From assembly GCA_965208425.1 (NCBI GenBank), contig OZ242335.1:2119181-2183180 (forward strand): a stretch of 64,000 nucleotides of DNA, given 5' to 3'. The position numbers were made by a program, and so were the translations under genes. The first letter of the stretch is position 1. Each line of letters opens with the position of its first letter. Shown piece after piece: positions 1,575 through 55,722 of the stretch. This stretch comes from Candidatus Poribacteria bacterium. Lineage in GTDB: Bacteria; Poribacteria; WGA-4E; PCPOR2b. The notes beneath the pieces are model-generated. The model saw only the letters and a program-made list of their open reading frames with translations, was not told where the DNA came from and made no database searches.

Positions 1575-1925
1575 AGATCTCCGTTCCTTATGTTCTAAAC
1601 CAACGAGGCCATACGTTCAAAGAACGTCAACATTGGTTCAATTTGTTAAATGTCAACAGAACCTAGTACTCTGTCAGGCAAATTATGGTTGTGTATATTG
1701 ATTGAAAGCAAACAATAACATATCAGGACTTGCCCAGCCGAACGGTCAAAGCCGTTTCTCCCCCTTTAGCTGGCACTGAGGGGTGTGTGGGAGGGGCATC
1801 TCCCGCGAAGCGAGGATCCCGATAAATCGGGACCTGCCCCGATACGCCCGATGAATCGGGCAACTACAATCTGGAATGCGTAAGTCCTATAATTGCAAAA
1901 TGAGCACTAGTTGATTCATAAGTCC
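1575..1925 (+). repeat. composite MITE-like repeat element, copy A (about 280-350 bp); inverted copy at 9020-9300, partial direct copy at 8738-8850
   Basis: The reverse complement of 9061-9300 matches 1640-1880 almost base for base. Examples are caactagtaccctgtcaggcaaattatg..., gcaaacaataacatatcaggacttgcccag and the cccgataaatcggg core. The ends are TIR-like AGGACTTACGC / GCGTAAGTCCT. Confidence 0.85.
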
Positions 1926-4599: not shown

Positions 4600-5091
4600 A
4601 TCACAACTCCTATCTGTTAAAATTCAGTTGGTTTTTTGTATCCGCACCAGAGGTGCGAGATAATTGAGAGAGTCTAACCTAAGTTGCTAGTTATCTGCAG
4701 CGCGATAAAAGTCAACATCCTATACCCGTAGGTCGGGCATCTTGCCCGACATACAAAGCCCCAGCGGGGCGATAGGTGTATAGCAATGCCGAAATCCCAT
4801 ACTCCACAGCCCCAGCGGGGCGACAGGTATGGTGTTAATTTGATTGTTTCTAATATGTGTCGATTATGAAAAGTCGATCTACAGGTTGTCTAGCAACTTG
4901 CGTTAGTCTAGGAAATCAACGCAGGAGTCGGGAATTGGAATTCCCTCCTACACCAGACGGACGGTAGGAGCGATTTCCCAATCGCGACTTTCGCTCCGGA
5001 GAAGCGATATGTCTATAGAATGCCGATACCGCAGATGCCTGCACTCCAGCGGAGCGCAATGTGTATAGCAAAGCTAGTATCGAATCCAATC
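4600..5091. repeat. intergenic cluster of REP-type hairpin repeats of the CCCCAGCGGGGCGA(C/T)A(G/T)GTGTATAGCA and CTCCAGCGGAGCGCAATGTGTATAGCA families, plus a GTAGGTCGGGCATCTTGCCCGAC hairpin
   Basis: Units at about 4752, 4805, 4995 and 5045. The GTAGG-prefixed palindrome is at 4727-4752. The same families recur throughout the window. Confidence 0.8.
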
Positions 5092-7553: not shown

Positions 7554-8423
7554 ATGTCGAACACAATCAATCCACCGCAGATCCGACACATGGCAACGCT
7601 CTGGACCCTAACAGACTATGGCGATGCTGATGGAGAATGGTCTATGGATCGGAAACTACGGGAGATAAAAAATGCCGGATTCGACGGCTTTCTTGGTCGA
7701 GTGCCGGTCGTCACCGCCGAGCATGTCCAAGGGTATGGACTGCTGTTTGCAGCGACTGTAGATATAGGGGAGGCAGCGGAGGTCGAGCCAAAACTTAAGG
7801 AAATCAAAGAGGTGGGCGCGGTCTGTGTCAACGTGCAGATGCTCGACCACGACACTTCAACTGAAGAAGCGCTAACGCGGGCACGTCAAGTGATGGACAC
7901 CGCAGGCAAGCTGGAAATGGATGTCGCCATTGAGGTCCACCGCGACACCTGCACCGAAACGCCGGAGAAGGCTTATGCCCTCGCAGAAGGCTTTGAGCAG
8001 GCGGAGGGACGACCGCTAAAGATGACGTGGGATTTCTCACACCCCGCTATTATCAAGCACCTATCGCCACCGTACTGGGATCGATTGGCAGAACGGGTTG
8101 ACCTGATCCAACTCGCCCAGCAGTTCCATTTCCGTCCGTTCAACGGTCACCATTGTCAAATCCCCGCACTCGGTCACGATGGTGAGTTCACGCCGGAGTT
8201 CTTGGACTGGCTTGAATTCGCGGATCGGCTCATCGAAGTCTGGCTGCAAGCGGCGCCACCGGGGCGCGAGATGTTTGTCTGCCCAGAGCAGGGCGCGATG
8301 GGCTATACCCTATCAGTCTTTCCAGATCGATGGAAGGATGTGCAAGCCATTCGAGGCGAGGTAGAGCGGGTTTGGCAAAAGCATATCAAGAACTGGACAC
8401 CACCACAATCGAATGAAACGTGA
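7554..8423 (+). CDS. sugar phosphate isomerase/epimerase (xylose-isomerase-like TIM-barrel family)
   Basis: A 289-aa ORF with a GGAGGT RBS. The composition and the length are typical of AP-endonuclease-2/xylose-isomerase-like TIM barrels. A TTGACA-type promoter-like sequence lies at 7389. Confidence 0.6.
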   Translation: MSNTINPPQIRHMATLWTLTDYGDADGEWSMDRKLREIKNAGFDGFLGRVPVVTAEHVQGYGLLFAATVDIGEAAEVEPKLKEIKEVGAVCVNVQMLDHDTSTEEALTRARQVMDTAGKLEMDVAIEVHRDTCTETPEKAYALAEGFEQAEGRPLKMTWDFSHPAIIKHLSPPYWDRLAERVDLIQLAQQFHFRPFNGHHCQIPALGHDGEFTPEFLDWLEFADRLIEVWLQAAPPGREMFVCPEQGAMGYTLSVFPDRWKDVQAIRGEVERVWQKHIKNWTPPQSNET

Positions 8424-9455
8424 TTCGTAAAACGTGAAAACAATGAGTTCATGGGTTCATTTAGCCCCAGAGGGGCGACATGTCTATAGTACACAGGTAA
8501 ACAAATACCCTAAAGCCCCAGAGGGACGACATGTATATCCCAAGGGTGGAACATAAGAAGACTGAATTAACCAACCGACTAATGAACCGATGAACTCCCC
8601 GATAAATCGGGATCCGAAGTGGCTTGACCGATCCATACCCAGCAGGATGATATATATAAAAAAATACAATGGTTGGTAGGGAACAACGATCGTTGTTCCC
8701 TACGAGTTGGAACGTAGAAGTGCGTATATTTCGTAGGGAACGGTGATCTCCGTTCCATTTGTTAAATGTCAACAGAACCTAGTACTCTGTCAGGCAAATT
8801 ATGCTTGTGTATATGGATTGGAAGCAAACAATAACATATTAGGACTTACGCACTTCAGTAGTGAACAACGATCGTTGTTCACTATGGGCTTTTCTATGGA
8901 GTCTCTGTTGTAGTTGCCCGATTTATCGGGCGTTGTTGGGCGTTGGTGCGGCGATAAATCGCCGAACTACAGGATTTTGAGCGTTCAACTGCGTAAGTCC
9001 TGATATATAATAGCTGCAAAACTTATATGACTGAGTACTAGTGCTCAGTCAGATAAGTTTTACAATTATAGGACTTACGCATTCCAGATTGTAGTTGCCC
9101 GATTCATCGGGCGTATCGGGGCAGGTCCCGATTTATCGGGATCCTCGCTTCGCGGGAGATGCCCCTCCCACACACCGCTCAGTGCCCGCTAAAGGGGGCG
9201 AAAGGGCTTTGACCGTTCGGCTGGGCAAGTCCTGATATGTTATTGTTTGCTTTCAATCAATATACACAAGCATAATTTGCCTGACAGGGTACTAGTTGAT
9301 AAACCAAACGCTAGAAAGCAATCTATTAGGCGGGAATTAGAATTCCCTCTTACACTACGCAAAGTATACGGGGTGAGGCGTACCCTTCCGAATCATGACT
9401 TGCTTCGCTCCAATTGTACAAACTTTAGTAAAAAACTCAAAGGAGATTTTCTTTA
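8424..9455. repeat. 1-kb non-coding repeat nest (MITE/REP graveyard)
   Basis: It contains CCCCAGAGGGGCGACATGTCTATAG x2 with a conserved 23-bp spacer. It also holds GTAGGGAACAACGATCGTTGTTCCCTAC palindromes, a partial direct copy (8738-8850) and a full inverted copy (9020-9300) of the 1575-1925 element, and an 80-bp perfect-ish palindrome at 8990-9075. No ORF has protein-like composition. Confidence 0.85.
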
Positions 9456-12128
9456 ATGCAAATTCAGATTAAACCCAGTTTTCTGTTTTTCGTGTTTACG
9501 TTGTTCGTGTGCCTCAATTCCTTTTTCCTAGGGAATAGTGCTGCCCAAGTTCAAGATGAACCCATTGGTATATCTGCCAACTATACTTTTGAAACGATTG
9601 ATGTTCCCGGCGTCGAGTTTTTGGCGATAACAGCCAGTAGCGACTTTGAGGATTACGCCGGCTACACACTGAGCCCTGATGGTGAAAAGGAAGTCGGCTT
9701 TACACTCATTGATGGCGTTTTTGAGACCTATGATTTCCCCGGCTCGCAGAAAACCCATTTCTACGCGCTTGGTAATAATGGGCTAGCTGCGGGTCACTAC
9801 CAGGATAGCGACGGTCTGTATCATGGCGTTATTGTGGAAGATGGCGAAATGCGGCAATACCATTTTCCGGGTGCGGTCCAAACGGAGATATACGGGTATA
9901 GCGATTCGACGGGGGCAATGACGGGTAATTTTATTGATACTTCTGGCATTCGTCGTGGATTCTCAGGAGATGAAATAATTGAGTATCCCGGGGCAACGGC
10001 AACTTATGCCACTTTTGTGAACGACGTAGGCAATGTCGTGGGTAGCTACATAGATGCTGAAGGTACATATCATGTATACGTGCGTGGTCCCGGGGGTAGT
10101 TTTGCAACTCTGGATATTCCAGCAGGATCGGATCCCGAATACTTTTTTCTGCAAGGTATTAATAACGCCCTGATTGCTGTCGGTCGAGCCAAAGCGGTGG
10201 GTGATGTCCCGCGCACCTATGCCGGCAATGCCATCGGTCTACAAGAATTGCAGTTTCCGGGCAGCGTCAGCACGGAAGGCTGGAATGTTAATCAGGATGG
10301 CTCTATCGTGGGACACTATGACTCTGCGGATGGACGTAGACACGGGTTTATCGCTAGACCGAAAGCGGGTACTCCACAAGCACGACCCGGTGTTGTGCAG
10401 CCTGCCCTCAACTATACCTTTGAGAGTATTGATGTTCCCGGTGTAGATTTTCTGGCGGTAACTGCGAGTAGCGACTTTGAGGATTACGCCGGCAACATGC
10501 GGAGTGCTGATAGTGAAAAAGATATCGGCTTTACACTCATTGACGGCGTTTTTGAGACGTATGATTTCCCTGACTCGCAGGGCACCTATTTCTATGCACT
10601 CGGCAATGATGGGACAGCTGCGGGTCACTACCAAGATAGCGATGGTCTTTACCACGGTGTTATCTTAGAAAATGGCGAACTGCGTCAATATGATTTTCTA
10701 GGTGCTGTCGAAACGTTCATATACGGGTATAGTGATGCGACGGGACGACTAACGGGTAGTTTTATAGATGCTGATGGTGTTCGCCGTGGTTTCTCAGGAG
10801 ATCTAATAATTGAATACCCTGGGGCATCGGCAACCTACGCCGATTTTGTGAACTGGTCAGGCAATATCGTGGGCAGCTACGTGGATGCTGAAGGTATGTA
10901 TCATGCATACACGCGTAGTCCGGTGGGCAGATTTCTATCTATGGACCTTCCAAACGCAACAAATCTGGAATACTTTTTTCTGCACGGTCTCAACAATGCA
11001 AGGGCTGTCGTTGGTCGCGCCAAAGCGGTGGGTGATGTCCCGCGCACCTATGTCGGCAACCCCCTCAATCTACAAGAATTGCGGGTACCGGGCAGCGTCA
11101 GCACGGAAGGGTGGAATATCAATCAGGACGGCTCCGTCGTCGGACACTATGACTCAGCAGGTGGGCGCAGACATGGCTTTATTGCCAGACTCACTTCCGA
11201 GGCGGTGAGCGATTATTTTGGCAACGTCTTCAACGTCACACTGGCTAAAGGTCTGAACATGATCTCTGTGCCGTTGTCACCACCAGCGCCGATGACTGCA
11301 AAATCGCTTGCGGGGCTGACAGGGGCAACCACCGTCATCACACTCGATACGGCAAACCAGCAGTTCGTCGGGTGGACACCAACCGCACCGGACGACGGTT
11401 TTCCAATTGAGGGTGGGAAAGGTTATATCGTCAATGTTCCGGAAACTCGCCAATTTGCCTTCGTCGGGTCAGAATGGACAAATCAGACGGAAACTGCAGC
11501 AGCACCTGCTATCTCCGTGGAGCCGGTCCAAGAAGCGTGGGCGTTCGTTGTAAGTGGTCACTTGGACGGCAAAGCAGCGTTTGATGGTTATCAAGTTATC
11601 GTCCGTAATCTGAGGACAAATCACACAATAACCACCTCGGTACGTGGTGATTACTTCGCCGCTGCGACCGCTGACTTGGCACGGCGGAGTGTTGTCGAAG
11701 TTGGAGATGTGCTTGAAGTCCGTGTTATCGGGCCGGGTGGAAATGTTGAATCACACACCCTCAATTACGAAGTAACCCCTGAAGACCTAGCGAACGCGGT
11801 TATGTCTATCAGGCTTGATAGTATCGGTCAACCGAAGCTGACGCAGTTGTTGCAGAACTTCCCCAATCCGTTTAACCCTGAAACTTGGATTCCATACCAG
11901 CTTGAAACAGCCGCAGATGTCACCCTCCACATTTACCACACAGCAGGTGATATCGTGCGGACGCTGGATCTCGGTTTCAAGGGACAAGGGTTCTATATGA
12001 CGCGCTCTAGGGCAGCGTACTGGGATGGGCGCAATAACTTGGGCGAGCAGGTTGCTTCTGGGGTTTACTTCTACAGCTTACATACCCCTGACTTTTCAGC
12101 GACTCGGAAGATGTTAATTTTGAAGTAG
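9456..12128 (+). CDS. secreted HAF-like-repeat protein with C-terminal NPFNPET (FlgD-Ig / T9SS-type) sorting-like domain, paralog 1 of 3
   Basis: An 890-aa ORF with an AAAGGAG RBS. The signal peptide is MQIQIKPSFLFFVFTLFVCLNSFFLGNSAAQ. Two ~290-aa tandem super-repeats are each made of ~45-aa units of the pattern FPG..T..YGIN..G.VVG.Y.D..G..HGFIA, which is HAF/DUF3466-like. A conserved ~300-aa C-terminal module ends ...LLQNFPNPFNPETWIPYQLETAADVTLHIY...VASGVYFYSL...RKMLILK. Confidence 0.85.
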   Translation: MQIQIKPSFLFFVFTLFVCLNSFFLGNSAAQVQDEPIGISANYTFETIDVPGVEFLAITASSDFEDYAGYTLSPDGEKEVGFTLIDGVFETYDFPGSQKTHFYALGNNGLAAGHYQDSDGLYHGVIVEDGEMRQYHFPGAVQTEIYGYSDSTGAMTGNFIDTSGIRRGFSGDEIIEYPGATATYATFVNDVGNVVGSYIDAEGTYHVYVRGPGGSFATLDIPAGSDPEYFFLQGINNALIAVGRAKAVGDVPRTYAGNAIGLQELQFPGSVSTEGWNVNQDGSIVGHYDSADGRRHGFIARPKAGTPQARPGVVQPALNYTFESIDVPGVDFLAVTASSDFEDYAGNMRSADSEKDIGFTLIDGVFETYDFPDSQGTYFYALGNDGTAAGHYQDSDGLYHGVILENGELRQYDFLGAVETFIYGYSDATGRLTGSFIDADGVRRGFSGDLIIEYPGASATYADFVNWSGNIVGSYVDAEGMYHAYTRSPVGRFLSMDLPNATNLEYFFLHGLNNARAVVGRAKAVGDVPRTYVGNPLNLQELRVPGSVSTEGWNINQDGSVVGHYDSAGGRRHGFIARLTSEAVSDYFGNVFNVTLAKGLNMISVPLSPPAPMTAKSLAGLTGATTVITLDTANQQFVGWTPTAPDDGFPIEGGKGYIVNVPETRQFAFVGSEWTNQTETAAAPAISVEPVQEAWAFVVSGHLDGKAAFDGYQVIVRNLRTNHTITTSVRGDYFAAATADLARRSVVEVGDVLEVRVIGPGGNVESHTLNYEVTPEDLANAVMSIRLDSIGQPKLTQLLQNFPNPFNPETWIPYQLETAADVTLHIYHTAGDIVRTLDLGFKGQGFYMTRSRAAYWDGRNNLGEQVASGVYFYSLHTPDFSATRKMLILK

Positions 12129-12706
12129 CCCCGTAGGTTGGGTAGAGCGTTAGCGAAACCCAACATAATCAACTTTCGCTCTCTGGTAGGTGCGGTTTCC
12201 AACCGCACCGCATTCAATCCAATCCGGTAGGTGCGGTTTCCAACCGCACTGCATCAGCACAGAAAGTTCATGTAGGTCGAGATTCACATCTCGACAAAAT
12301 CTCTTGGAAAATTGACCTATAGGAGGGCTAAATGTAGGGGCAGGTTTCTTAATCCCGCCTGTCCCGATTTATCGGGGATCTATCGGGGTCTTGTGCCTGC
12401 CCAAAAAGATGAGCGCGGAGTAGCCCCGTAGGTTGGGCAGAGCGTTAGCGAAACCCAACATAATCAACTTTTGCCCTCTGGTAGGTGCGGTTTCATGAAG
12501 TTTAATTTATTAATTCGGTAATCCCGATTTTCCTCGAAACATAGGGTAGGCGCGGTTTTCAACCGCGCTGGCGTCGATAGCAAATTACCGAAGTATTTTT
12601 TTATCTTCATCCAACCGCACCGGTTTCAAATGTCTCATTAATTCTAAAATCTACCGTAAATTATAGAAATGGGCAACATCAGTCCACCGAAAAGGAGCTT
12701 TTCTTT
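12129..12706. repeat. BIME-like cluster of GTAGG-prefixed REP hairpins between paralogs 1 and 2
   Basis: It contains CCCCGTAGGTTGGGTAGAGCGTTAGCGAAACCCAAC x2 (12127, 12418), GTAGGTGCGGTTTCCAACCGCACC x3, GTAGGTCGAGATTCACATCTCGAC, GTAGGGGCAGGTTTCTTAATCCCGCCTGTCCCGATTTATCGGGG, and then the R-box at 12634. Confidence 0.85.
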
Positions 12707-15411
12707 ATGCACAGTCAGGCCAAACCCAATTTTCTGTTTTACATCTTTACGTTGTTCGTATGCCTCAATTCCTTTTTCTTAAGTAACACCGATGCACAAA
12801 CCGATAATGACTCAACTCCCCCACCGCCTGAATTCAGCTACACTTATGAGAGTATTGATGTCCCCGGCGTAAATTTTTTAGCGTTGACAGCGAGTTCTGA
12901 CTTTGAGGATTACGCGGGTTACACGCGTAGTGCTGATGGTGAAAAGGAAGTCGCCTTTACACTCATTGATGGGGTTTTTACGACCTATGATTTCCCCGGC
13001 TCGCAGAAAACTCGTTTCTATGCGCTTGGTAATGATGGGACAGCTGCGGGCCACTACCAAGATAGCGATGGTCTTTACCATGGTGTCGTCTTGAAAAATG
13101 GCGAATTGCGCCAGTACGATTTTGAGGGTGCAGTCCAAACGGAGATATATGGTTTCAGTGATGCAACGGGCGTTCTGACGGGTAATTTTATAGATGCTTC
13201 TGGCGTTCGCCGTGGATTCTCAGGGGACACAATCGTTGAAGCGCCTGATGCAACAGCAACATACGCCGATTTTGTGAACGCGAGTGGCGCTATCACAGGA
13301 AGTTACGTAGGTGCTGACGGTCTATATTATCCATACGTGCGCACCCTGAATGGCACATTTGTAATTCACGACTATCTGGATTCATCAACTCTGGAATACT
13401 TTTTTGTGCACGGTCTCACTGATACAAGGATTATCGTTGCACGAGCTAAAGCGATAGGTGATATTCCACGTTCCTATGTCGGCACATCCCAGCAAGGATT
13501 ATCTGAATTACAGTTTCCGGGCAGTGTTAGCACAGAGGGTTGGAATATTAATCAAGATGGGTCTGCCGTCGGGTATTACGACTCTGCGGATGGACGTAGA
13601 CACGGATTTATCGCCAGACCCACTGCGGAAACTGCTGAAAAATTCAGAGATATAGCTTATCCCCCCCCACCTGAATTCAATTATACTTATCAGAGCATTG
13701 ATGTTCCGGGAATAGATTTTCTGGCGTTGACGGCGAGCAGCGACTTTGGGGGGTATGCAGGCTACGCGCGAAGTCCTGATGGTGAAAAGGAAGTTGCGTT
13801 TACACTCATTGACGGTGTGTTTACAACGTATGATTTTCCCGGCTCACAGGGTACCTATTTCTATGCACTCGGCAATAATGGGTTAGCTGCAGGGCACTAC
13901 CAAGATAGCGATGGCCTTTACCATGGTGTCGTCTTGGAAAATGGTGAACTGCGCCAATACGATTTTGAGGGTGCGGTCCAAACGGAGATATATGGTTTCA
14001 GCGATGCAACGGGTGTTCTGACGGGTAATTTTATAGATGCTTCTGGTGTTCGTCGTGGATTTTCAGGGGACACAATCGTTGAAGCGCCTGATGCAACAGC
14101 AACATACGCCGATTTTGTGAACTCACAAGGTCTTGTCGTAGGCAGCTACATGGATGCTGATGGTTTATTTCATGCCTACGCGCGCACCTTGAGTGGTCGG
14201 TTTATACTTCTTGACTATCTTGACCCGCTAACTCTGGAATACTTTTTTTTACACGGTATTAACGACGGGGGGGAAGGGGTGTATTTGTGATTGCCCGATC
14301 CAAATTTGTGGATGATATTCCACGCTCCTATGTCGGCTCATATCTGTACGGGCTACACGAATTGTGGTTTCCGGGTAGCGTGAGCACAGAGGGTTGGAAT
14401 ATCAATCAGGACGGCTCCGTCGTCGGACACTATGACTCAGCAGATGGGCGCAGACACGGGTTTATTGCCAGACTCGGCACTAAATCAGAGAGCGATTATT
14501 TTAGTAACGCCTTCAATATCACGCTCGATAAAGGTTTGAACATGATTTCTGTGCCGTTGTCACCACCAACACCGATGACTGCGAAGTCACTTGCCGCGCT
14601 GACAGGGGCGACCACCGTCATCACACTCGATACGGCAAACCAGCAGTTCGTCGGGTGGACGCCAAGTGCACCGGACGACGGGTTTCCTATTGAAGGTGGG
14701 AAAGGTTATATCGTCAATGTTCCGGAAACTCGCGAATTTGCCTTCGTCGGGTCAGAATGGACAAATCAGACGGAAACTGCAGCAGCACCTGCTATCTCCG
14801 TGGAGCCGGTCCAAGAAGCGTGGGCGTTCGTTGTAAGTGGTCACTTGGACGGCAAAGCAGCGTTTGACGATTACCAAGTAATCGTCCGTAACCTCAGAAC
14901 AGACAGGGTGATAACTGCTTCGGTGCAAGGTGATTACTTCGCCGCGGCAACCGCCGACTTGGCGCGCCGGAGCGTTGTCGAAGTTGGAGATGTCATTGAA
15001 GTCCGTGTTATTGGGCCGGGTGGAAATGTTGAATCACACACGCTCAACTTTGAAGTAACCCCTGAGGACCTAGCGAACGCGGTTATGTCTATCAGGCTTG
15101 ACAGTATCGGTCAACCGAAACTGACGCAGCTGTTGCAGAACTTCCCCAATCCGTTCAACCCGGAGACATGGATTCCATACCAGCTTGAAACAGCCGCAGA
15201 TGTCACCCTCCAGATTTATGATACGTCTGGCGATCTGGTGCGGACATTAGATCTCGGTTTCAAGGGACAAGGGTTCTATATGACACGCTCTAGGGCAGCG
15301 TACTGGGATGGGCGTAACAATTTGGGCGAGCAGGTTGCCTCTGGGATTTACTTCTACAGTTTGCATACCCCTGACTTTTCAGCGACTCGGAAGATGTTAA
15401 TTTTGAAGTAG
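12707..15411 (+). pseudogene. secreted HAF-like-repeat protein paralog 2, reading frame broken at a G7 homopolymer (about 14265-14290). The ORF track splits it into 12707-14290 and 14287-15411.
   Basis: The N-terminal part (527 aa, MHSQAKPNFLFYIFTLFVCLNSFFL...) stops at HGINDGGEGVYL*. The downstream frame continues IARSKFVDDIPRSYVGS..., homologous to the IVARAKAIGDIPRSY segment of the intact repeats. The C-terminal module is more than 90% identical to those of paralogs 1 and 3. Confidence 0.75.
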
Positions 15412-15709
15412 CCCCGTAGGTTGGGTAGAGCGTTAGCGAAACCCAACATAATCAACTATGGTGGATTCTAAAAACAGATAGACACTTTCGTCCTTTGGTA
15501 GGTGCGGTTTCCAACCGCACCGCATCGGCACAGTTAGAAACAGTGCCTACCAAACCGGAGAACGGTAGGTGCGGTTTCCTAACCGCACCCGTGCCGACTC
15601 GTCGAGCATCCTTGATAAATCGGGATTTGAAGTGTCTCATTAATTCTAAGATTCACTATAAATTATAGGAATGGACAACATTAGTCCACCGAAAGGGAGT
15701 TTTTTCTTT

Positions 15710-18382
15710 ATGCACAATCAGACCAAACCCAATTTTCTGTTTTTCGTGTTTATGTTGTTCGTATGCCTCAATTCCTTTTTCCTAGGGAATAGTGCTGCCC
15801 AAGTTCAAGATGAACCCGTTGGTATATCTGCCAACTATACTTTTGAAACGATCGACGTTCCGGGCGTAGATTTTTTAGCGTTGACGGCAAGTTCCGATTT
15901 TGAGGATTATGCCGGTTACACGAAAAGTGCTGATGGTGAAAAAAATGTCGGTTTTACACTGATTGATGGCATTTTTATAACCTACGATTTCCCTGGTGCC
16001 CAAAACACGTATTTCTACGCGCTTGGTAATGATGGGCGCGCTGCGGGCTACTACGAAGATAGCGAGGGTTTGCACCACGGTGTTATCTTGGAAGATGGTG
16101 AGATACGGCAATACGATTTCCCCGATGCTGTGCAAACAGAGATATACGGTATTAGTGACGCGACGGGAGTATTGACGGGTAATTGGATAGATGCTGCTGG
16201 TGTTCAGCGTGGATTTACAGGAGACACAATCCTTGAGTTCCCCGGGGCAACAGCAACATTCTCCGATTTCGTCAACTCCGCAGGCAATATGTTCGGCAGC
16301 TACATAGATGCTGACGGGCTATTTCAAGAATATGCATATTCCTCGGATGGCAGGTATATAGCTTTCGATCTCGCAAATGCAGAAAATCTCGAATTCTTTT
16401 ATGTGCATGGTTATAACGATACAAAGACAAGGGTTGCCCGAGGTAAAGTGTTCGGTGATGTCACACGCACTTATCTAGGTACATTTGTTGACGGTCTGCG
16501 GGAATTGAAGGTTCCGGGCAGCGTCAGCACAGAAGGTTATAATATCAATCAGGACGGTTCTGTTGTCGGGTTCTATGAGACACCCGATGGACGTAGACAC
16601 GGGTTTATTGCCAAACCCATTGAAGTCGTTGATAAACCCGTTTTCCAAATCAGTGGCTTCAACTATACTTATGAGAATATTGATGTACCGGGCGTAGATT
16701 TTCTGTCGTTGACAGCAAGTTCTGACTATGAAGATTACGCGGGCTACACGAAAAGTGCCGATGGCGAAAAAATGGTCGCCTTTACCCTTATTGATGGTGT
16801 TTTTAAGACCTACGATTTTCCCGGTTCACAGAATACCTATTTCTTTGCACTCGGTAATAATGGCGATGCTGCCGGCTACTACGAGGATAGCGAGGGGCAC
16901 CACCGCGGTATCGTCCTACAAAATGGCGAGTTACGCCAATACGATTTTCCGGGCTCCGTTGAAACAGAAATATACGGCATTTCTGATGCAACGGGGAACC
17001 TGACGGGTAATTGGACAGATGCTTCCGGCGTGCGTCGCGGATTCACAGCGGACATAATCGTTGAGTATCCGGGGGCATCGGAAACATTCGCCGATTTTAT
17101 CAATGCGTCAGGGGGTATGGTCGGCAGCTACGTAGATGCCGAGGGTACATATACACCATACCTACGCGCTGGAGATGGCAGGTTTGTATCTTTCGACCTT
17201 CCGACCGAAGAAACTTATGAATTCTTTTATGTGCACGGTCAAACCGATACGAAGATTTCCGTTGCTCGAGGCAAAGTCGTAGGTGATGTTCCCCGCACTT
17301 ATGTCGGTTCATTCCTTGGGGGGCTCCATGAATTGAAAGTTCCAGGCAGCGTTTCAACGGAAGGGTACAATATCAATCAGGACGTTTCTGTCGTTGGACA
17401 CTATGACTCCCCGGATGGACGCAGACACGGCTTTATCGCAAGACTCGTTGATAAAGCAGAGAGCGAGCATTTCGGCAATACTTATACCGTCACGCTGGAT
17501 AAAGGTCTGAACATGATCTCTGTGCCGTTGTCACCACCAGCGCCGATGACTGCAAAATCGCTTGCGGGGCTGACAGGAGCGACAACCGTCATCACACTCG
17601 ATACGGCAAACCAGCAATTTGTCGGGTGGACACCAACCTCACCGGACGACGGTTTTCCAATTGAAGGTGGAAAAGGCTATATCGTCAATGTTCCGGAAAC
17701 TCGCGAATTTGCCTTTGTCGGGTCAGAATGGACAAATCAGACGGAAACTGCAGCAGCACCCGGTATATCCGCGGATCCAGTCCAAGAAGCGTGGGCGTTC
17801 GTTGTGAGTGGTCACTTGGAGGGTAAACAAGCGTTTGACGGTTATCAAGTAATCGTCCGTAATCTGAGAACAAACGAGGTGATAACCACCGCAGTACGAG
17901 GCGATTACTTCGCCGCTGCAACCGCCGACTTGGCGCGGCGGAGCGTCGTCGAAGTTGGAGATGTCATTGAGGTCGATGTCATCGGTCCCGACAGAAATGT
18001 TGAATCACACACCCTCAATTATGAAGTGACCCCTGAAGACCTAGCGAATGCGGTTATGTCTATCAGGCTTGACAGTATCGGTCAACCGAAGCTGACTCAG
18101 TTGTTGCAGAACTTCCCCAATCCGTTCAACCCGGAGACATGGATTCCATATCAGCTTGAAACAGCCGCAGATGTCACCCTCCAGATTTATGATACGTCTG
18201 GCGATCTTGTGCGGACGTTGGATCTCGGTTTCAAGGGACAAGGGTTCTATATGACGCGCTCTCGGGCCGCGTACTGGGACGGACGCAACAACTTGGGTGA
18301 GCAGGTTGCCTCTGGAATTTACTTCTACAGTTTGCATACCCCCGACTTTTCGGCGACACGCAAGATGCTGATTTTGAAGTAG
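15710..18382 (+). CDS. secreted HAF-like-repeat protein with C-terminal NPFNPET sorting-like domain, paralog 3 of 3
   Basis: The ORF track starts at 15671. Homology to the paralog N-termini and the GAAAGGGAG RBS favour the ATG at 15710 (MHNQTKPNFLFFVFMLFVCLNSFFLGNSAAQ). The architecture matches paralog 1. The C-terminal 300 aa are almost identical to those of paralogs 1 and 2. Confidence 0.85.
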   Translation: MHNQTKPNFLFFVFMLFVCLNSFFLGNSAAQVQDEPVGISANYTFETIDVPGVDFLALTASSDFEDYAGYTKSADGEKNVGFTLIDGIFITYDFPGAQNTYFYALGNDGRAAGYYEDSEGLHHGVILEDGEIRQYDFPDAVQTEIYGISDATGVLTGNWIDAAGVQRGFTGDTILEFPGATATFSDFVNSAGNMFGSYIDADGLFQEYAYSSDGRYIAFDLANAENLEFFYVHGYNDTKTRVARGKVFGDVTRTYLGTFVDGLRELKVPGSVSTEGYNINQDGSVVGFYETPDGRRHGFIAKPIEVVDKPVFQISGFNYTYENIDVPGVDFLSLTASSDYEDYAGYTKSADGEKMVAFTLIDGVFKTYDFPGSQNTYFFALGNNGDAAGYYEDSEGHHRGIVLQNGELRQYDFPGSVETEIYGISDATGNLTGNWTDASGVRRGFTADIIVEYPGASETFADFINASGGMVGSYVDAEGTYTPYLRAGDGRFVSFDLPTEETYEFFYVHGQTDTKISVARGKVVGDVPRTYVGSFLGGLHELKVPGSVSTEGYNINQDVSVVGHYDSPDGRRHGFIARLVDKAESEHFGNTYTVTLDKGLNMISVPLSPPAPMTAKSLAGLTGATTVITLDTANQQFVGWTPTSPDDGFPIEGGKGYIVNVPETREFAFVGSEWTNQTETAAAPGISADPVQEAWAFVVSGHLEGKQAFDGYQVIVRNLRTNEVITTAVRGDYFAAATADLARRSVVEVGDVIEVDVIGPDRNVESHTLNYEVTPEDLANAVMSIRLDSIGQPKLTQLLQNFPNPFNPETWIPYQLETAADVTLQIYDTSGDLVRTLDLGFKGQGFYMTRSRAAYWDGRNNLGEQVASGIYFYSLHTPDFSATRKMLILK

Positions 18383-18456
18383 CTCCGTAGGTTGGGTAGA
18401 GCGTTAGCGAAACCCAACATGATGAGTTTAATGCGGAGTCAGGAAGGACTAAAAAA

Positions 18457-19293
18457 ATGCCTGTCTTAACGGCAGAAGATCGAAAGTTCTGGGAAGAAAA
18501 CGGCTATGTGGTCGTTCACAACGCCGTTCCAACCGAAAATCTCAAAGCTGCCGAGCGGGCGGTATGGGATTTTTTGGAGATGCAGCCCGACGAGCCTGCG
18601 AGCTGGTATCCCGACCCGCCTCGCTCCACCATCATGACGGAGATGTATCAGCATCAGGCACTATGGGACAACCGTCAGTATCCTCGTATTCATCAAGCGT
18701 TTGCGGAGATTTGGGATACTGAACAGTTGTGGGTGAGCATTGACCGCGCCAGCATGAACCCGCCAGAGCTACCGGATTGGAAATACCCCGGCAAACTTCA
18801 CTGGGATACTCAATTGGAACCGCCGATTGAGTTCTGGGTTCAGGGGGTGCTATACCTGACAGACACCGCAGCCGACCAAGGCGCGTTCACCTGTGTACCG
18901 GGCTTCCATCACCAACTGGAGGGTTGGCTCAAAGACTTGCCCCCGGAGACGAATCCGCGTGAGCAAGATCTGAACAGCCTCGGTGCTAAATCGATTCCTG
19001 GGAAAGCAGGTGATCTCATCATCTGGCACAGTGCCTTGCCCCACGGCAGCAGTTCCAACACAGCCATGGTCCCACGCGTGGTCCAGTACATCACCATGTT
19101 CCCATCGCAAAGATACGGTGAGGATGCCCGAAACCATCGCATCAAAGCGTGGCAAGATCGCCTAGCGGGACTGGTCATTGAGGTCACCGGTATAACCACG
19201 TGGGAACTCCGAAACGAGAAAGAGCATCAAATAGGTCAGACAGCAGAACTGTCTCCACTGGGGCGAAAATTGTTAGGACTGGATCAATGGTAG
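18457..19293 (+). CDS. phytanoyl-CoA dioxygenase (PhyH) family protein
   Basis: A 278-aa ORF with an AGGAAGGA RBS. The N-terminus reads LTAEDRKFWEENGYVVVHNAV, and a C-terminal WHSALPHGSSSN His motif is present. Confidence 0.8.
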   Translation: MPVLTAEDRKFWEENGYVVVHNAVPTENLKAAERAVWDFLEMQPDEPASWYPDPPRSTIMTEMYQHQALWDNRQYPRIHQAFAEIWDTEQLWVSIDRASMNPPELPDWKYPGKLHWDTQLEPPIEFWVQGVLYLTDTAADQGAFTCVPGFHHQLEGWLKDLPPETNPREQDLNSLGAKSIPGKAGDLIIWHSALPHGSSSNTAMVPRVVQYITMFPSQRYGEDARNHRIKAWQDRLAGLVIEVTGITTWELRNEKEHQIGQTAELSPLGRKLLGLDQW

Positions 19294-19577
19294 TAGGCAC
19301 GCTCTGTGTGCCGTAACCTGCCCCCATTTCCGTAGGTCGGGCATCCCCCGCGGGATCCTCCCGGACTTGTCCGGTGCTTCGTAGGGAACGCAGATCTGCG
19401 TTCCATTTTTTTTACGTATTACGAATTACGTATTATACTTCATTAACCCCAGTTGCTTTGAATCCCGATCCTATCGGGGCAGGGCGGTATGTTTATAGAA
19501 TACCAGCGATCTAAATCTTCTCAAGCCCCAGCGGGGCGACATGTGTGTAGAACGTCATCCAAAAAAGGAAACGACAA

Positions 19578-20567
19578 ATGGAAAAGCGAACAGTCGGCAA
19601 ATCCGGCATTGAGATCTCTGTAATGGGAATCGGCGGCTGGTCCTATGGCGGCGGAGACTACTGGGGTCCCCAAGCGCAAGAGGACGTTGATGCTGTGGCA
19701 CACGCTGCGCTCGACAACGGCATCAACTTCTTTGACACCGCAGAAGGCTACAACGAGGGACGGAGCGAAGAAGCGGTCGGTAGAGCCTTAAAAGGGCGGC
19801 GAGATGAAGCGGTGATCGCCACCAAGATCAGTCCGAACAATACCGAACCCACAGTGCTACGCGAACATTGCGGAGCCAGTCTCGATCGACTGCAAACGGA
19901 TTACATCGATATCTATATCGTTCATTGGCCCATCACAGAACACTCCGTTGAGGATGCGTTTACAACCCTGAACGCATTGAAGGAGGAGGGCAAAATCCGC
20001 TCGATCGGTGTCAGCAACTTTGGTGTAGAGCAACTGTCCGAAGCCCTTGCCACCGGCGTTCAGATCGATGTGAACCAGCTCTGCTACAATCTCCTGTCAC
20101 GGGGGATTGAGTTGGAGATTTTACCGTTATGCCAAAAACACGGGATGGGTATTCTGGGATATATGCCGCTGCTGCAAGGGCTCCTGACCGGTATGTATAA
20201 AACAGCGGAGGAGCTACCACCTGTCCATGCGCGGTTCCGGCATTTCCGTGGTGATCGAGAAAAGGCAGGTCATGGTGAGCAAGGAGCGGAGGAGGAGATG
20301 TTCGCTGCCGTCGAAGGTATCAGAAAAGTTGCCGAGGCAGAGGGGGTTCCCATGAGTCGGCTTGCAATCGCTTGGACCATTGCAAAGCCCGGCATCACCT
20401 GTGAGTTGGTCGGCACCCGCAATCTATCGGAGCTCCAAGAAAATCTACACGTTGCATCGCTCTCTCTTTCTTCTGAGACTATCGCAAAATTGGATGAGAT
20501 AACAACGCCGCTGCTTCAGAAGCTCGGTGCAAATGTGGATTACTTCCTAGCGCGGCGGACTCATTAA
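19578..20567 (+). CDS. aldo/keto reductase family oxidoreductase
   Basis: A 329-aa ORF. The N-terminus MEKRTVGKSGIEISVMGIGGWSYGG, plus DTAEGYNEGRSEE and IDIYIVHWP, are canonical AKR motifs. Confidence 0.88.
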   Translation: MEKRTVGKSGIEISVMGIGGWSYGGGDYWGPQAQEDVDAVAHAALDNGINFFDTAEGYNEGRSEEAVGRALKGRRDEAVIATKISPNNTEPTVLREHCGASLDRLQTDYIDIYIVHWPITEHSVEDAFTTLNALKEEGKIRSIGVSNFGVEQLSEALATGVQIDVNQLCYNLLSRGIELEILPLCQKHGMGILGYMPLLQGLLTGMYKTAEELPPVHARFRHFRGDREKAGHGEQGAEEEMFAAVEGIRKVAEAEGVPMSRLAIAWTIAKPGITCELVGTRNLSELQENLHVASLSLSSETIAKLDEITTPLLQKLGANVDYFLARRTH

Positions 20568-20679
20568 TCCCGCTGCCCATGCCATCAATTTTACTAGCTT
20601 TTTGATTGATATTGCTATATGTTTTCCAACCTCTTCCCAACTAACGCACCTTGAACTATGAACTACCCTCAATTAACTT

Positions 20680-20955
20680 ATGCTGTTTGAATGGGACGAG
20701 CACAAAAATCAAGCGAATATAGCAAAACATGGTATCGATTTTAATGATGCCAAGAACGTATTCCTCGATCCCCATCGTATTGAGCGAGTTGATAATCGCC
20801 AAGACTATGGTGAAATTCGTTTTCAAACAATTGGCATGGTTGGAGGAAGGTTACTATTTGTTGCTTATACCTATCGGGCTGAAAACACAAGAATCATTTC
20901 AGCAAGGAGAGCAGAACGTCATGAGACAAGAAAATATCACGAAAGTTACGCTTGA
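20680..20955 (+). CDS. brnT: BrnT-family (DUF497) type II toxin, a ribonuclease toxin
   Basis: A 91-aa ORF. MLFEWDEHKNQANIAKHGIDFNDAKNVFLDPHRIE...RIISARRAERHE matches the BrnT/DUF497 signature. Confidence 0.75.
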   Translation: MLFEWDEHKNQANIAKHGIDFNDAKNVFLDPHRIERVDNRQDYGEIRFQTIGMVGGRLLFVAYTYRAENTRIISARRAERHETRKYHESYA

Positions 20956-21298
20956 CCCAAATAATCCATCAAAGGGAAAAACTGACTGGGAAGAGGTGGA
21001 CGCAATGACGGAGGAGGAGATCCGCGCTGCAGCATTGTCAGATCCAGACGCGCAACCTGTAACATCAGAAGGACTAGAAGAATTTAAGCCTGTTCCCGAT
21101 GCGAAGGCAATCCGTGAGGGGATGAACCTCACTCAGAAAGAGTTTGCCTCTCGCTTTCAACTTTCGCTAAGGACACTCCAAGATTGGGAGACAGGCCGAC
21201 TTGAGCCGGATCCAGCAGCTAAAGCATTGCTCCGAATTATCCTCCATAGTCCCGAACTAGTCGAGAAGGTCCTGAACGGAGAAAATCCTGCACACTAA
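20921..21298 (+). CDS. cognate antitoxin, BrnA-like with an XRE-type helix-turn-helix
   Basis: An internal ATG at 20921 is preceded by an AGGAGA RBS. The ORF overlaps the brnT 3' end by 35 nt. The protein is MRQENITKVTLDPNNPSKGKTDWEEVDAMTEEEIRAAALSDPDAQP...MNLTQKEFASRFQLSLRTLQDWETGRLEPDPAAKALLRII, which reads as an HTH_XRE. The 189-aa frame in the ORF track (20729-21298) is probably an over-extension. Confidence 0.65.
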   Translation: MRQENITKVTLDPNNPSKGKTDWEEVDAMTEEEIRAAALSDPDAQPVTSEGLEEFKPVPDAKAIREGMNLTQKEFASRFQLSLRTLQDWETGRLEPDPAAKALLRIILHSPELVEKVLNGENPAH

Positions 21299-21581
21299 CG
21301 GGACCGGATACTTATACTTTTTAGTAATAACCAATGGTGCTAGTTTGCAGCTGTTGATAACGTGATACGTGAAAAGCATTGGTTCATCGCTTCATTTAGC
21401 CCCAGCGGGGCGACATGTGTATAGCACACAGATAAACAAATACTCTAAAGCCCCAGCGGGGCGACATGTGTATCCGAAGGGTGGCACGCAAGAAGAATGG
21501 ATGAACTCTTGAACAATGTGGAAGCGATTTTCTCACTAGCTAGCATCAAAGGTTAATAAACGTTTTCAAAGGATTACAAAA

Positions 21582-49316: not shown

Positions 49317-50729
49317 ATGGCAGAACAAGAAAAGCCGAACGAGACGGTAGACATTGGCGAATATAAATATGGGTTTCATGATGATGTTAAGCCTGTTTTC
49401 AAATCGCGAAAGGGTTTGGATACTGAGGTCATCAACGAAATGTGTGATGTCAAAGGCGAACCTGACTGGATGCGTGAATACCGGCTGAAAGCCTATGACA
49501 TCTTTAAGCAGAAGCCAGAACTGAAGTGGGGCGGTGACCTCTCTGATCTCGACTACGACGACATCTACTACTACGTCAAAGCCTCTGACCGCGTCGAGCG
49601 CAGTTGGGACGATGTACCAGATGACATCAAGAACACCTTTGATCGACTCGGCATCCCGGAAGCGGAACGGAAATTCCTCGCCGGTGTCGGTGCCCAATAC
49701 GATTCAGAGGTTGTCTATCATAACATCGAAGAAGAGTTAGAGAAAATCGGCGTTATCTTCGTCGATACCGATACCGCTATCCGTGAATATCCGGATCTGG
49801 TCAAAGAGTATTTCGGTACAGTGATTCCGTCTGCGGATAACAAACTTGCCGCGCTCAACTCAGCGGTCTGGTCGGGTGGATCTTTCATCTACGTCCCGCC
49901 CGGGGTGAAAGTCGATTATCCGCTGCAGGCGTACTTCCGTATCAATAGCGAGAACATGGGTCAGTTTGAGCGGACGTTGATTATCGCCGACGAAGGCGCA
50001 GAGGTGCACTACGTCGAAGGCTGCACGGCGCCAACCTTTTCCAGTGAATCGTTACACAGTGCTGTCGTCGAGATTATCTGTAAAAAGGGATCGCGTGTGC
50101 GCTACACCACTATCCAAAACTGGGCGAATAATGTATATAATCTCGTGACCAAGCGAGCAACGGCTTACGAAGATGCCCACATGGAATGGATCGACGGTAA
50201 CCTCGGCTCAAAACTCACGATGAAGTACCCAAGCATTTACATGATGGAGCCCGGTGCACACGGAGAAATCCTCTCAATCGCATTTGCAACCAAGGGACAA
50301 CATCAGGACGCCGGTGGCAAGGTCATTCACTGTGCGCCGAACACCAGTTCGCGTATCACCTCCAAGTCGATTAGCAAAGACGGAGGACGTTCCAGCTACC
50401 GTGGCGAGTTGAAAGTGCTTAATGGCGCGAAAGGGTGTAAGTCCAACGTCGAATGTGATGCCCTGATTCTTGATGAGGAATCACGTTCCGATACCTATCC
50501 GGTTATCCAGATTGACGCAGACGATGTGAACGTCGGTCACGAAGCGCGTGTCAGCAAGATCGGCGAGGAGCAGCTCTTTTATCTGATGAGCCGCGGGCTT
50601 TCCGAAGAGGAAGCCTCCACGATGATTGTCAACGGATTCATCGAGCCACTTGTAAAAGAACTCCCAATGGAGTACGCGGTCGAAATGAACCGCCTGATCC
50701 AACTCCAGATGGAAGGTTCGGTAGGATAA
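49317..50729 (+). CDS. sufB: Fe-S cluster assembly protein SufB
   Basis: A 470-aa ORF. The conserved SufB core is [21 protein letters not shown]...[10 protein letters not shown]. Confidence 0.9.
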
Positions 50730-50864
50730 CGCAAGTTGCTAGTTGATAAACTAAGTGCTGGAAACGGACGCAAGAGTCGGGAATTGGAATTCCCTCCTAC
50801 AAAAAAACAGACTGTAGGAGCGATATCCGAATCGCGACAAGAGACTCAATGTTGAGAAAATAAC

Positions 50865-52747: not shown

Positions 52748-52796
52748 CCGTGCAAAAACCACAGCGCGTTTACTATGGGAAATCGTGTGATTACCC

Positions 52797-52912
52797 AGGG
52801 CGTGTTGACATTTTGATGTTGCTAATTCGGTGAACGCTGTAATCATTGGGTAATCTGGCAAATGTAGCGCAAACTGTTAGTTTGCGACCTAGATCACAAT
52901 CTAACAAATTGT
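52797..52912 (+). repeat. 115-bp dispersed element, copy 1; an inverted copy lies at 57885-58000
   Basis: CAGGGCGTGTTGACATTTTGATGTTGCTAATTCGGTGAACGCTGTAATCATTGGGTAATCTGGCAAATGTAGCGCAAACTGTTAGTTTGCGACCTAGATCACAATCTAA matches the reverse complement of 57885-58000 at more than 85%. Confidence 0.85.
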
Positions 52913-53221
52913 GGTACAAAAGGCCACTTTTACAAAAAAACTTTGTTGGGTTTCACTCTATCCGTCTATAAGCAGGTGTTGTTGGACGACCAAGCCTCTA
53001 TTGGGCTTGAGAGGGATTCCCGTTTAACCGTTCAACCCAACCTACGGACTGTTAAATGTTAACAGAACCTAGCATTTAAGAGGTCATTTAACAGGAACCG
53101 ATTAAATACACTAGTTCATCAGTTCAGAGGTTCATCCATGAACCTATAAACCCCTGACTGTTTACGCATCACGTTTCACGTTTCATTCTTCACACTTTTC
53201 AAAATTGAAAGGAACCTAACA

Positions 53222-55645: not shown

Positions 55646-55722
55646 ACCTTTGGTGCTAGTTGGTTTCACGTTTTACGTTTTACGCATCACGTTTTACTCT
55701 CAGTTGTGAATGGAGGATTCTG

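Follow-up and report, generated by a model that had tools for sequence, protein, structure and literature searches.

What has built the kilobase of repeat-rich DNA that precedes the first of three paralogous genes in this Candidatus Poribacteria genome, and does it have a function there? The stretch in question, 8424-9455, lies in a 64-kb window (the whole piece of DNA that was analysed, to which all coordinates refer unless a locus of another genome, numbered L001, L004 and so on, is named) and is bounded by the stop codon of the open reading frame (ORF) 7554-8423 and by the ATG at 9456 of an 890-aa ORF, paralog 1. In a preliminary description it was regarded as a nest of repeat modules with no credible ORF, and the latter point stands, the sole ORFs within the stretch (103, 69 and 61 aa) having no match in Pfam. 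As argued below, the nest is very probably a passive pile-up of non-autonomous elements, with its core, 8780-9294, consisting of two MITEs (miniature transposable elements with inverted repeats), termed A and B, that carry the ends of a 1254-bp insertion sequence (IS) of the IS630 family. The features on which the argument draws are as follows, where REP denotes repetitive extragenic palindromic sequences and X a second, IS5-type family.

8410-8545, forward strand: short-repeat module, ACGTGAAA-type repeats and then two units of about 51 nt with AGCCCCAGRGGGRCGACATGT
8546-8667, no strand: low-copy spacer (0-6 repeat hits) with one small hairpin, CCCGATAAATCGGG (8598-8611)
8668-8779, forward strand: right-hand ~110 nt of an X-family (IS5-type) MITE, without left end, ending in AAATGTCAACAGAACC
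8780-9040, forward strand: MITE A, read as a complete IS630-type element from its terminal-repeat pattern, with TA at each end (body 8782-9038)
8990-9081, no strand: A/B junction palindrome, in which the right ends of A and B face each other across their shared TA, 9039-9040
9039-9294, reverse strand: MITE B, read as a complete IS630-type element of the E1 subfamily, inverted relative to A (body 9041-9292)
9295-9355, forward strand: flank module, found repeatedly, that contains a REP-like hairpin, GGGAATTAGAATTCCC (9332-9347)
9356-9455, forward strand: unique 5' region of paralog 1 (0-1 repeat hits)
1664-1909, forward strand, outside the stretch: MITE E1, whose TA 1664-1665 is shared with a complete X MITE, 1430-1665
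55656-55659, no strand, outside the stretch: unoccupied CTAG target, the orthologous site of which in OZ220744.1 (L035) holds a 113-bp family member

The boundaries of A and B follow from comparison with E1. That the nest holds an inverted copy of the E1 region, as first described, is confirmed: 1663-1900 and 9058-9295 are 97% complementary over 238 nt (blast E 1e-112), and in the alignment of E1 (1664-1909) with B (9039-9294) 238 of the 246 aligned positions are identical, with one gap of 9-10 nt besides. A direct repeat with 93% identity links 8752-8852 to 1636-1736. The motif CTAGTRCTC occurs exactly five times in the window, against 0.3 expected, at 1663, 1902-1910 (reverse), 8779, 9033-9041 (reverse) and 9038, and when the three copies are aligned together with their flanks, the homology passes the 11-mers that had been taken for the ends and continues up to the CTAG at 1663/1907, 8779/9038 and 9038/9292, respectively. 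This delimits E1, A and B, all three of them complete and with a TA within CTAG at either boundary. E1 and B form one subfamily, and A has the same ends and a different interior. The true terminal repeat is TAGTRCTCWGTCA..., which adjoins the duplicated TA; in A the left end reads TAGTACTCTGTCAGGCAAATTATGC and the right end ...GCAAAACTTATATGACTGAGTACTA. Inclusive of the TAs, A has 261 bp and B 256 bp, and an A-type relative (L001 4789-5027) is 73% identical.

With these boundaries, several parts of the preliminary description have to be redrawn. The repeat that was described as a 280-bp element at 1575-1925 is real but was wrongly bounded, as it consists of E1 plus the end of the adjacent element 1430-1665. 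Likewise, the direct similarity at 8738-8850 exists but is no partial copy; it represents the left end of the complete A together with 27 nt of the neighbouring element, which are also present to the left of E1. The palindrome of about 80 bp does fold, with the single-stranded DNA 8990-9081 giving -28.6 kcal/mol (z = -10.3), but it is not a standalone feature, being the place where the ends of A and B abut across one TA. As to the 11-mer AGGACTTACGC, which had been placed at 1722, 1878, 8838 and 9225 and proposed to terminate the element, it is exact at 1878 and 8841, and also at 8991 and 9070, whereas 1722 and 9225 read AGGACTTGCCC, two mismatches away. It is ruled out as terminal repeat, since the homology between copies extends 30-70 nt beyond it and the ends align between the C and the TAG of CTAG. 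Instead, the longer subfamilies carry it as an inverted repeat in subterminal position, 30-70 nt inside their ends, and it is absent from a 117-bp subfamily and from the parent IS.

The proposal that the repeats form a MITE family is upheld by the shared ends, by the many copies and by an autonomous partner. This partner, an element with the same termini that encodes a transposase, is a 1254-bp IS630-family IS of related Poribacteria, elements of this length with the same two ends being present at L005, L011, L023, L024, L025, L042 and L046, with a further copy at L073 that is cut. It contains two overlapping ORFs, which a -1 shift at a run of eight A residues (A8) joins into a 380-aa protein that matches the NCBIfam model NF033545 (IS630 family transposase) with 226 bits (cut-off 100) and carries the Pfam domains DDE_3 and HTH_32. 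Single-ORF relatives of 369-377 aa cover 98% of the protein with identities of up to 61%, and relatives named as IS630 family transposase from cyanobacteria, KSB1 and Verrucomicrobia show 44-51%. The A8 run CTTAAAAAAAACC is kept in all the seven IS copies although these differ by up to 14%, which argues for programmed frameshifting rather than decay at this site, so far as can be read from the sequence. The correspondence with the MITEs is confined to the ends. Nucleotides 1-31/39 of the MITEs are 82-90% identical to nucleotides 1-39 of the IS, and their last 23-27 nt are 87-96% identical to its last 27 nt, while the interiors are unrelated; the IS has two unlike ends, and the MITEs carry them in the same arrangement.

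The family is widely dispersed. A scan with the end consensus TAGTRCYCWGTCAKRYAARTTWT, using one genome per species, returned at least 74 loci; among the matches listed, 12 Candidatus Poribacteria assemblies account for 71 loci, OZ220744.1 by itself for 40. A cyanobacterial origin of the window, which palindromes centred on GATC had suggested, is rejected, since the listed matches fall almost entirely in Poribacteria. Both OZ220744.1 and OZ244950.1 are syntenic with the window at 85-90% identity, so that it stems from a related Poribacteria genome other than these two. By a search for paired ends, the 74 listed loci from the 12 Poribacteria assemblies contain at least 80 complete elements, so that the further copies that were to be looked for are plentiful in related genomes; the window itself holds three. 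Among the complete elements listed, about 40 have 114-118 bp, others range over 94-508 bp, one has 851 bp and seven have 1253-1254 bp. The MITE derivatives fall into at least four size classes, including the 117-bp form, which is recently expanded. In this form, the mean identity of 36 copies among the listed matches is 97.8%, and OY762266.1 holds four IS copies with 99.7-100% identity. These near-identical copies, together with the presence or absence of an element at one orthologous site described next, point to recent transposition in the lineage, as judged from sequence comparison. Family elements are absent from a control set, namely 685 kb of metagenome DNA of distant relationship (80 contigs, obtained by a metagenome scan with the protein of ORF 7554-8423 for orthologous sites, with best matches of 76% amino-acid identity), and a plasmid collection gave no match to 8780-9295. 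The 1254-bp IS has been observed so far solely in sponge-associated Poribacteria.

The target site is defined by the flanks. In the window and the 74 listed loci, 88 element ends align to ...C/TAGT (the slash marks the boundary), with the flanks diverging exactly there, and in this strict set C precedes 86 of the 88 ends. An empty and a filled version of one site can be compared directly: the window reads GGTG-CTAG-TTGG at 55656, and L035 (5738-5854) reads GGTG-C-TA-[113 bp]-TA-G-TTGG, with the flanks 89% identical over 247 nt. In this family, an insertion at CTAG is accompanied by duplication of TA. This pair, which concerns the 117-bp subfamily, is the sole clean one from a search with the joined flanks of 81 elements; a second candidate, the L063 site compared with window 19294-19577, was rejected as too diverged. 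At those sites that are not CTAG, the departure is on one side only, as in C-TA...TA-A at L016, T-TA...TA-G at L047 and likewise at L027, which fits a duplication of 2 bp (TA) rather than of 4 bp, with the terminal G and C belonging to the element itself. With 95 sites where base composition predicts 249, CTAG is rare in the window, and its sites cluster outside ORFs, 42 of the 95 lying within 25% of the sequence.

The element to the left of A belongs to another family, X, whose ends read TAGG(GCG/TTC)TGTTGACATTT and of which 26 complete copies of 49-1141 bp were found. The fragment at 8668-8779 matches 1492-1587 and 1636-1663 of the complete copy 1430-1665, which shares a TA with E1, and the 27 nt common to the left flanks of E1 and A (AAATGTCAACAGAACC and upstream) are the X terminus. 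The X terminal repeats are common to an 813-bp element (L011 6145-6957), which encodes a 253-aa IS5-family transposase (NF033580, 258.7 bits, cut-off 110), and to a 1141-bp element (L004 2849-3989), which has a split IS5-type reading frame. X copies are bounded by (C)TA...TA(G), a pattern compatible with duplications of 2, 3 or 4 bp; no empty site was found for them. A further X copy is present in the window at 52796-53071.

How would the nest have formed? We infer the mechanism from the established behaviour of IS630 and ISY100, for which excision by double-strand cuts, insertion at TA and duplication of the TA have been reported (Feng and Colloms 2007, PMC2170065), together with a strong preference of IS630 for TA within CTAG (Tenzen and Ohtsubo 1991, as cited in PMC2170065). 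The transposase, presumably supplied by a source IS in this genome, would be made from the two overlapping frames via the -1 frameshift at A8, and its N-terminal helix-turn-helix domains would bind the terminal repeats of about 25 nt. The element would then be excised and inserted at a TA, preferably inside CTAG, with the repair duplicating the TA, and because the element starts with G and ends with C, each insertion would recreate CTAG at both ends. It would follow that a later insertion can land in the TA flanking an earlier one. Thus, if A and B both arrived by this route, the insertion of either A or B into the TA flanking the other would have brought the two right ends face to face, yielding the palindrome of about 90 nt, and the pair adjoins the IS5-type MITE end, whose junction also provides a CTAG. 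Under this scheme, the site without B would read ...GAGTAC-TA-GTTGATAAACC, and that without A ...CAACAGAACC-TA-GTGCTC.

Junctions with a shared TA recur in seven other loci (L004, L005, where an IS stands beside a MITE, L006, L040, L043, L065 and L046). At L046 (1014-2829, OZ244950.1) there is a chain of a 283-bp MITE, the 1254-bp IS and another 283-bp MITE, in which neighbours have one TA in common; the chain is followed by an X-family end, the same as that beside A in the window.

Several observations weigh against this account of the nest or limit it. No transposase gene is present within the 64-kb window, and no orthologous site lacking A or B turned up, so that for these two only the flanking TAs are visible. 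Moreover, the occupancy of CTAG sides in non-coding DNA, the counts of which are indicative only because the loci were chosen for containing an element, is 18/138 at an own-family end and 89/528 elsewhere; a preference for own-family ends is therefore unsupported, and with such equal occupancy the stacking would be a by-product, not a preference. At an X end, by the same biased counts, 28 of 57 CTAG sides are occupied (odds ratio 4.8, p = 1.6e-7), an excess which a bare preference for CTAG does not explain. One extended reading is that the IS630-type and IS5-type families, with one or more other MITE-like families, all insert at CTAG and recreate it, so seeding each other's insertion sites and building much of the intergenic DNA as chains of abutting elements, and that the X-end excess, together with a position 25-60 nt upstream of start codons noted below, represents promoter-proximal targeting. 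We regard this as a doubtful though possible extension; if true, it would mean that CTAG families are targeted close to promoters, with effects on gene expression.

Different explanations of the nest can now be weighed. Could A and B have been co-opted as regulatory DNA, that is, as promoter, terminator or insulator for paralog 1 or for the upstream gene? The position of B, with 161 nt separating its end from the downstream ATG at 9456, would suit this, as would the terminator-like character on both strands of the junction palindrome with its T-rich run (5 terminator-like sites against 1.1 expected) and the frequent location of family members and X ends 25-60 nt upstream of start codons, beside a recurring sequence CTAGCAACTTGCGTTA. 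Yet promoter-like sites are in no excess (3, against 2.8 in shuffled sequence), the other two paralogs have no nest, and no conservation of A or B at the same position in another genome was seen, so that co-option appears unlikely. It is also improbable that the nest has served as a recombination hotspot behind the paralog expansion or behind a 10-kb insertion or deletion. This idea, the first part of which had been raised in the preliminary description, draws on the fact that the nest sits exactly at the left edge of 8424-18440, a segment comprising the nest and the three paralogs that is missing from OZ244950.1 (L063), where the homologue of 7554-8423 is followed by about 190 nt and then by the homologue of 18457-19293; in addition, E1 and B, with 97% identity, opposite orientation and a distance of 7.1 kb, are a pair through which an inversion could in principle occur. 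However, the DNA of the paralogs P1-P3 is 77-80% identical, compared with ~97% for E1/B, so that the duplications that gave rise to the paralogs must greatly predate these copies. No end of the A/B/E1 family is present at the right edge of the 10-kb segment (18383-18456) or in the spacers that separate the paralogs, the nest lies upstream of paralog 1 only, and CBDBMC010000001.1 (L001) has a single paralog homologue, upstream of which an A-type MITE of its own stands in other surroundings. The link to the paralog expansion thus finds no support, and the lack of a terminal repeat at the right edge rules out a reading of the 10-kb segment as a composite transposon; given its position at the left edge, the nest may nevertheless have had some role in the 10-kb rearrangement.

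The two other alternatives concern the mechanism and the assembly. Since C-TA-[G...C]-TA-G can equally be read as CTAG-[...]-CTAG, and since a co-resident IS5-family element with other terminal repeats is also bounded by CTAG, the mover of the family might have been an IS5-type transposase, with duplication of the 4-bp CTAG, and not an IS630 enzyme, with duplication of TA. But the sole long elements with the family's ends encode an IS630-family transposase, and the one-sided departures from CTAG are inconsistent with a 4-bp duplication, which makes this alternative highly improbable. Still harder to credit is that a faulty assembly, for instance a fold-back chimera, has created the palindrome and the inverted copies: long palindromes can indeed come from chimeric long reads, but here the arms run into different interiors (those of A and B) with distinct outer flanks, and the same kind of shared-TA junction is found in at least seven loci of independent assemblies. 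The reading that we retain is the pile-up of IS630-derived MITEs.

Around this core, the rest of the stretch is made of other short repeats. The module 8410-8545, where the repeat coverage reaches 12-24 hits per base in Poribacteria loci, recurs at 21351-21495 (8426-8571 and 21361-21506 being 84% identical by blast alignment), and its units of about 51 nt with AGCCCCAGRGGGRCGACATGT are also found at 4757, 4808, 6287, 19524, 62900 and other places. It supplies the last three codons and the stop of ORF 7554-8423 (8410-8423), the C-terminus of which is PPQSNET* in the window and PPQ* in the OZ244950.1 (L063) homologue. For the product of this ORF, a PDB sequence search and Pfam both gave no match, so that the label of TIM barrel given to it in the preliminary description stays unverified. 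An exact look-up of this protein likewise found no record of it. On the other side, the repeat coverage falls from 72 to 6 hits directly past 9295, and the flank module that begins there recurs elsewhere in the window (9292-9354 versus 50739-50801, 76%; 9328-9355 versus 4926-4953, 89%; blast), following at 50739 an unoccupied CTAG. The unique region ahead of paralog 1 contains a sequence that reads like a Shine-Dalgarno motif, AAAGGAG (9440-9446), upstream of the ATG at 9456. An Rfam search of the whole window at gathering thresholds returned no match. The nest is unexceptional for the genome, with 12129-12706, 15412-15670 and 58867-59431 being as repeat-dense or denser.

Hairpins headed by GTAG are a common component of these repeats. 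In the window, GTAG precedes 30 of 147 hairpins, against a background of 1.7% (about 12-fold enrichment), and these units resemble REPs. In the nest, such units stand at 8676-8703 and 8733-8756, which are two palindromes of the X fragment, at 8858-8884, 8910-8932 and 8949-8970 (the last in reverse), which are REP-like hairpins inside A, and at 9091-9113. Dense arrays with varied stems lie in other intergenic regions, for example 62686-63060 and 12129-12600, and the stems include GTAGGTTGGGT...ACCCAAC, GTAGGTCGAGAT...ATCTCGAC and GTAGGTGCGGTTTCCAACCGCAC. A crude motif scan of 651 kb of the DNA analysed revealed no ORF with the HUH...Y motif that resembles a RAYT (REP-associated tyrosine transposase).

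Some further repeats and neighbouring features were noted. A third MITE-like family, TATGGTGAATTCTAAAAATA...CATTAATTCTAAAATCCACTATA, occurs in the window at 63130-63241, 15457-15661, 58875-59106 and 12630-12660; it is 91-95% identical to more than 10 OZ220744.1 loci, its copy at 58875-59106 is broken by other repeats, and at 63108/63239 it is flanked by the repeated TAATGAACTCTTGAAC. The sequence CTAGCAACTTGCGTTA is found at 59377-59392, 63090-63105, 4890-4905 and 50728-50742 (reverse), as well as at L063, L001, L017 and L049, often directly after an X end. At least five occurrences precede a start codon by 25-60 nt, and the sequence has a CTAG that is a frequent insertion site. From this placement it may be promoter-proximal, although at 4890 and 50728 it faces no gene start. 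Another sequence beside CTAG, ...ACGTTTCACGTTATCAACAGCTGCAAA-CTAG, contains the ACGTGAAA-type repeats and recurs at window 2065, 21340 and 37548 and at L037 and L055; it may be the end of a further TA-bounded family. GGCC is strongly depleted in the window (41 observed, 229 expected from base composition; 0.23 of the second-order expectation), which points to a restriction system of the lineage with GGCC as its site; low values are likewise found for GTAC (0.36) and CTAG (0.38). In the comparison with OZ244950.1, a segment of about 1 kb, 20567-21562 (ORF 20729-21298 plus the repeat module 21351-21495), is also absent there, and a 306-bp family member (L063 3759-4064) lies between the homologues of 18457-19293 and 19578-20567. 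Finally, paralog 2 aligns collinearly and at full length with paralogs 1 and 3, yet consists of two overlapping ORFs, 12707-14290 and 14287-15411 (527 and 374 aa), with the apparent frameshift reflecting either a pseudogene or a sequencing error.

How do the elements compare with known systems? A and B show, at the level of sequence, each of the features tested for IS630-derived MITEs, namely ends shared with the IS, TA duplication (for the family), small size, lack of coding capacity and dispersed copies. RUP of Streptococcus pneumoniae is a bacterial MITE that is moved in trans by an IS630-type transposase, and the plant Stowaway MITEs belong to the Tc1/mariner group. By description, the Poribacteria MITEs resemble both in being small (94-508 bp here) and non-coding, in having only the terminal repeats in common with the parent IS, in the TA flanks and in the many dispersed intergenic copies with nesting or adjacency, and differ from both in that the Poribacteria subfamilies have unrelated interiors, largely composed of GTAG-headed hairpins. 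With the REP/BIME (bacterial interspersed mosaic element) sequences associated with RAYT they share the GTAG and hairpin units and the clustering in intergenic DNA, while the terminal inverted repeats and the TA duplication of A and B are not REP features. The Poribacteria IS itself is like IS630 of Shigella sonnei, ISY100 of Synechocystis and Tc1/mariner in its helix-turn-helix and DDE_3 domains (NF033545) and its imperfect terminal repeats of about 25 nt, and its length of ~1.25 kb, its TA duplication and its CTAG preference are those of the IS630 family. It differs in that none of the full-length relatives found exceeds 61% amino-acid identity, and in that its transposase would be produced via a -1 frameshift at the conserved A8, whereas ISY100 encodes a single protein (PMC2170065). 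The literature searched contained nothing on Poribacteria together with IS630, nor on MITEs in Poribacteria, and the IS630-type IS of Poribacteria, its MITEs and the IS5-type MITE family are undescribed in that literature.

The elements are mechanistically ordinary, and the analysis is mainly of value for annotating a little-studied phylum correctly, in that a vague 'repeat nest' gives way to a map accurate to the base and to a mechanism. It can be used for masking these elements in the annotation and assembly of Poribacteria genomes, and the presence or absence of copies can be used as strain markers. An important point to keep in mind here is that the long palindromes are element junctions, not assembly errors or functional hairpins. 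Mobile elements are abundant and enriched in sponge symbionts (PMC4850255), and the finding that one third of the non-ORF DNA of the window lies under at least three short repeat hits fits this abundance.

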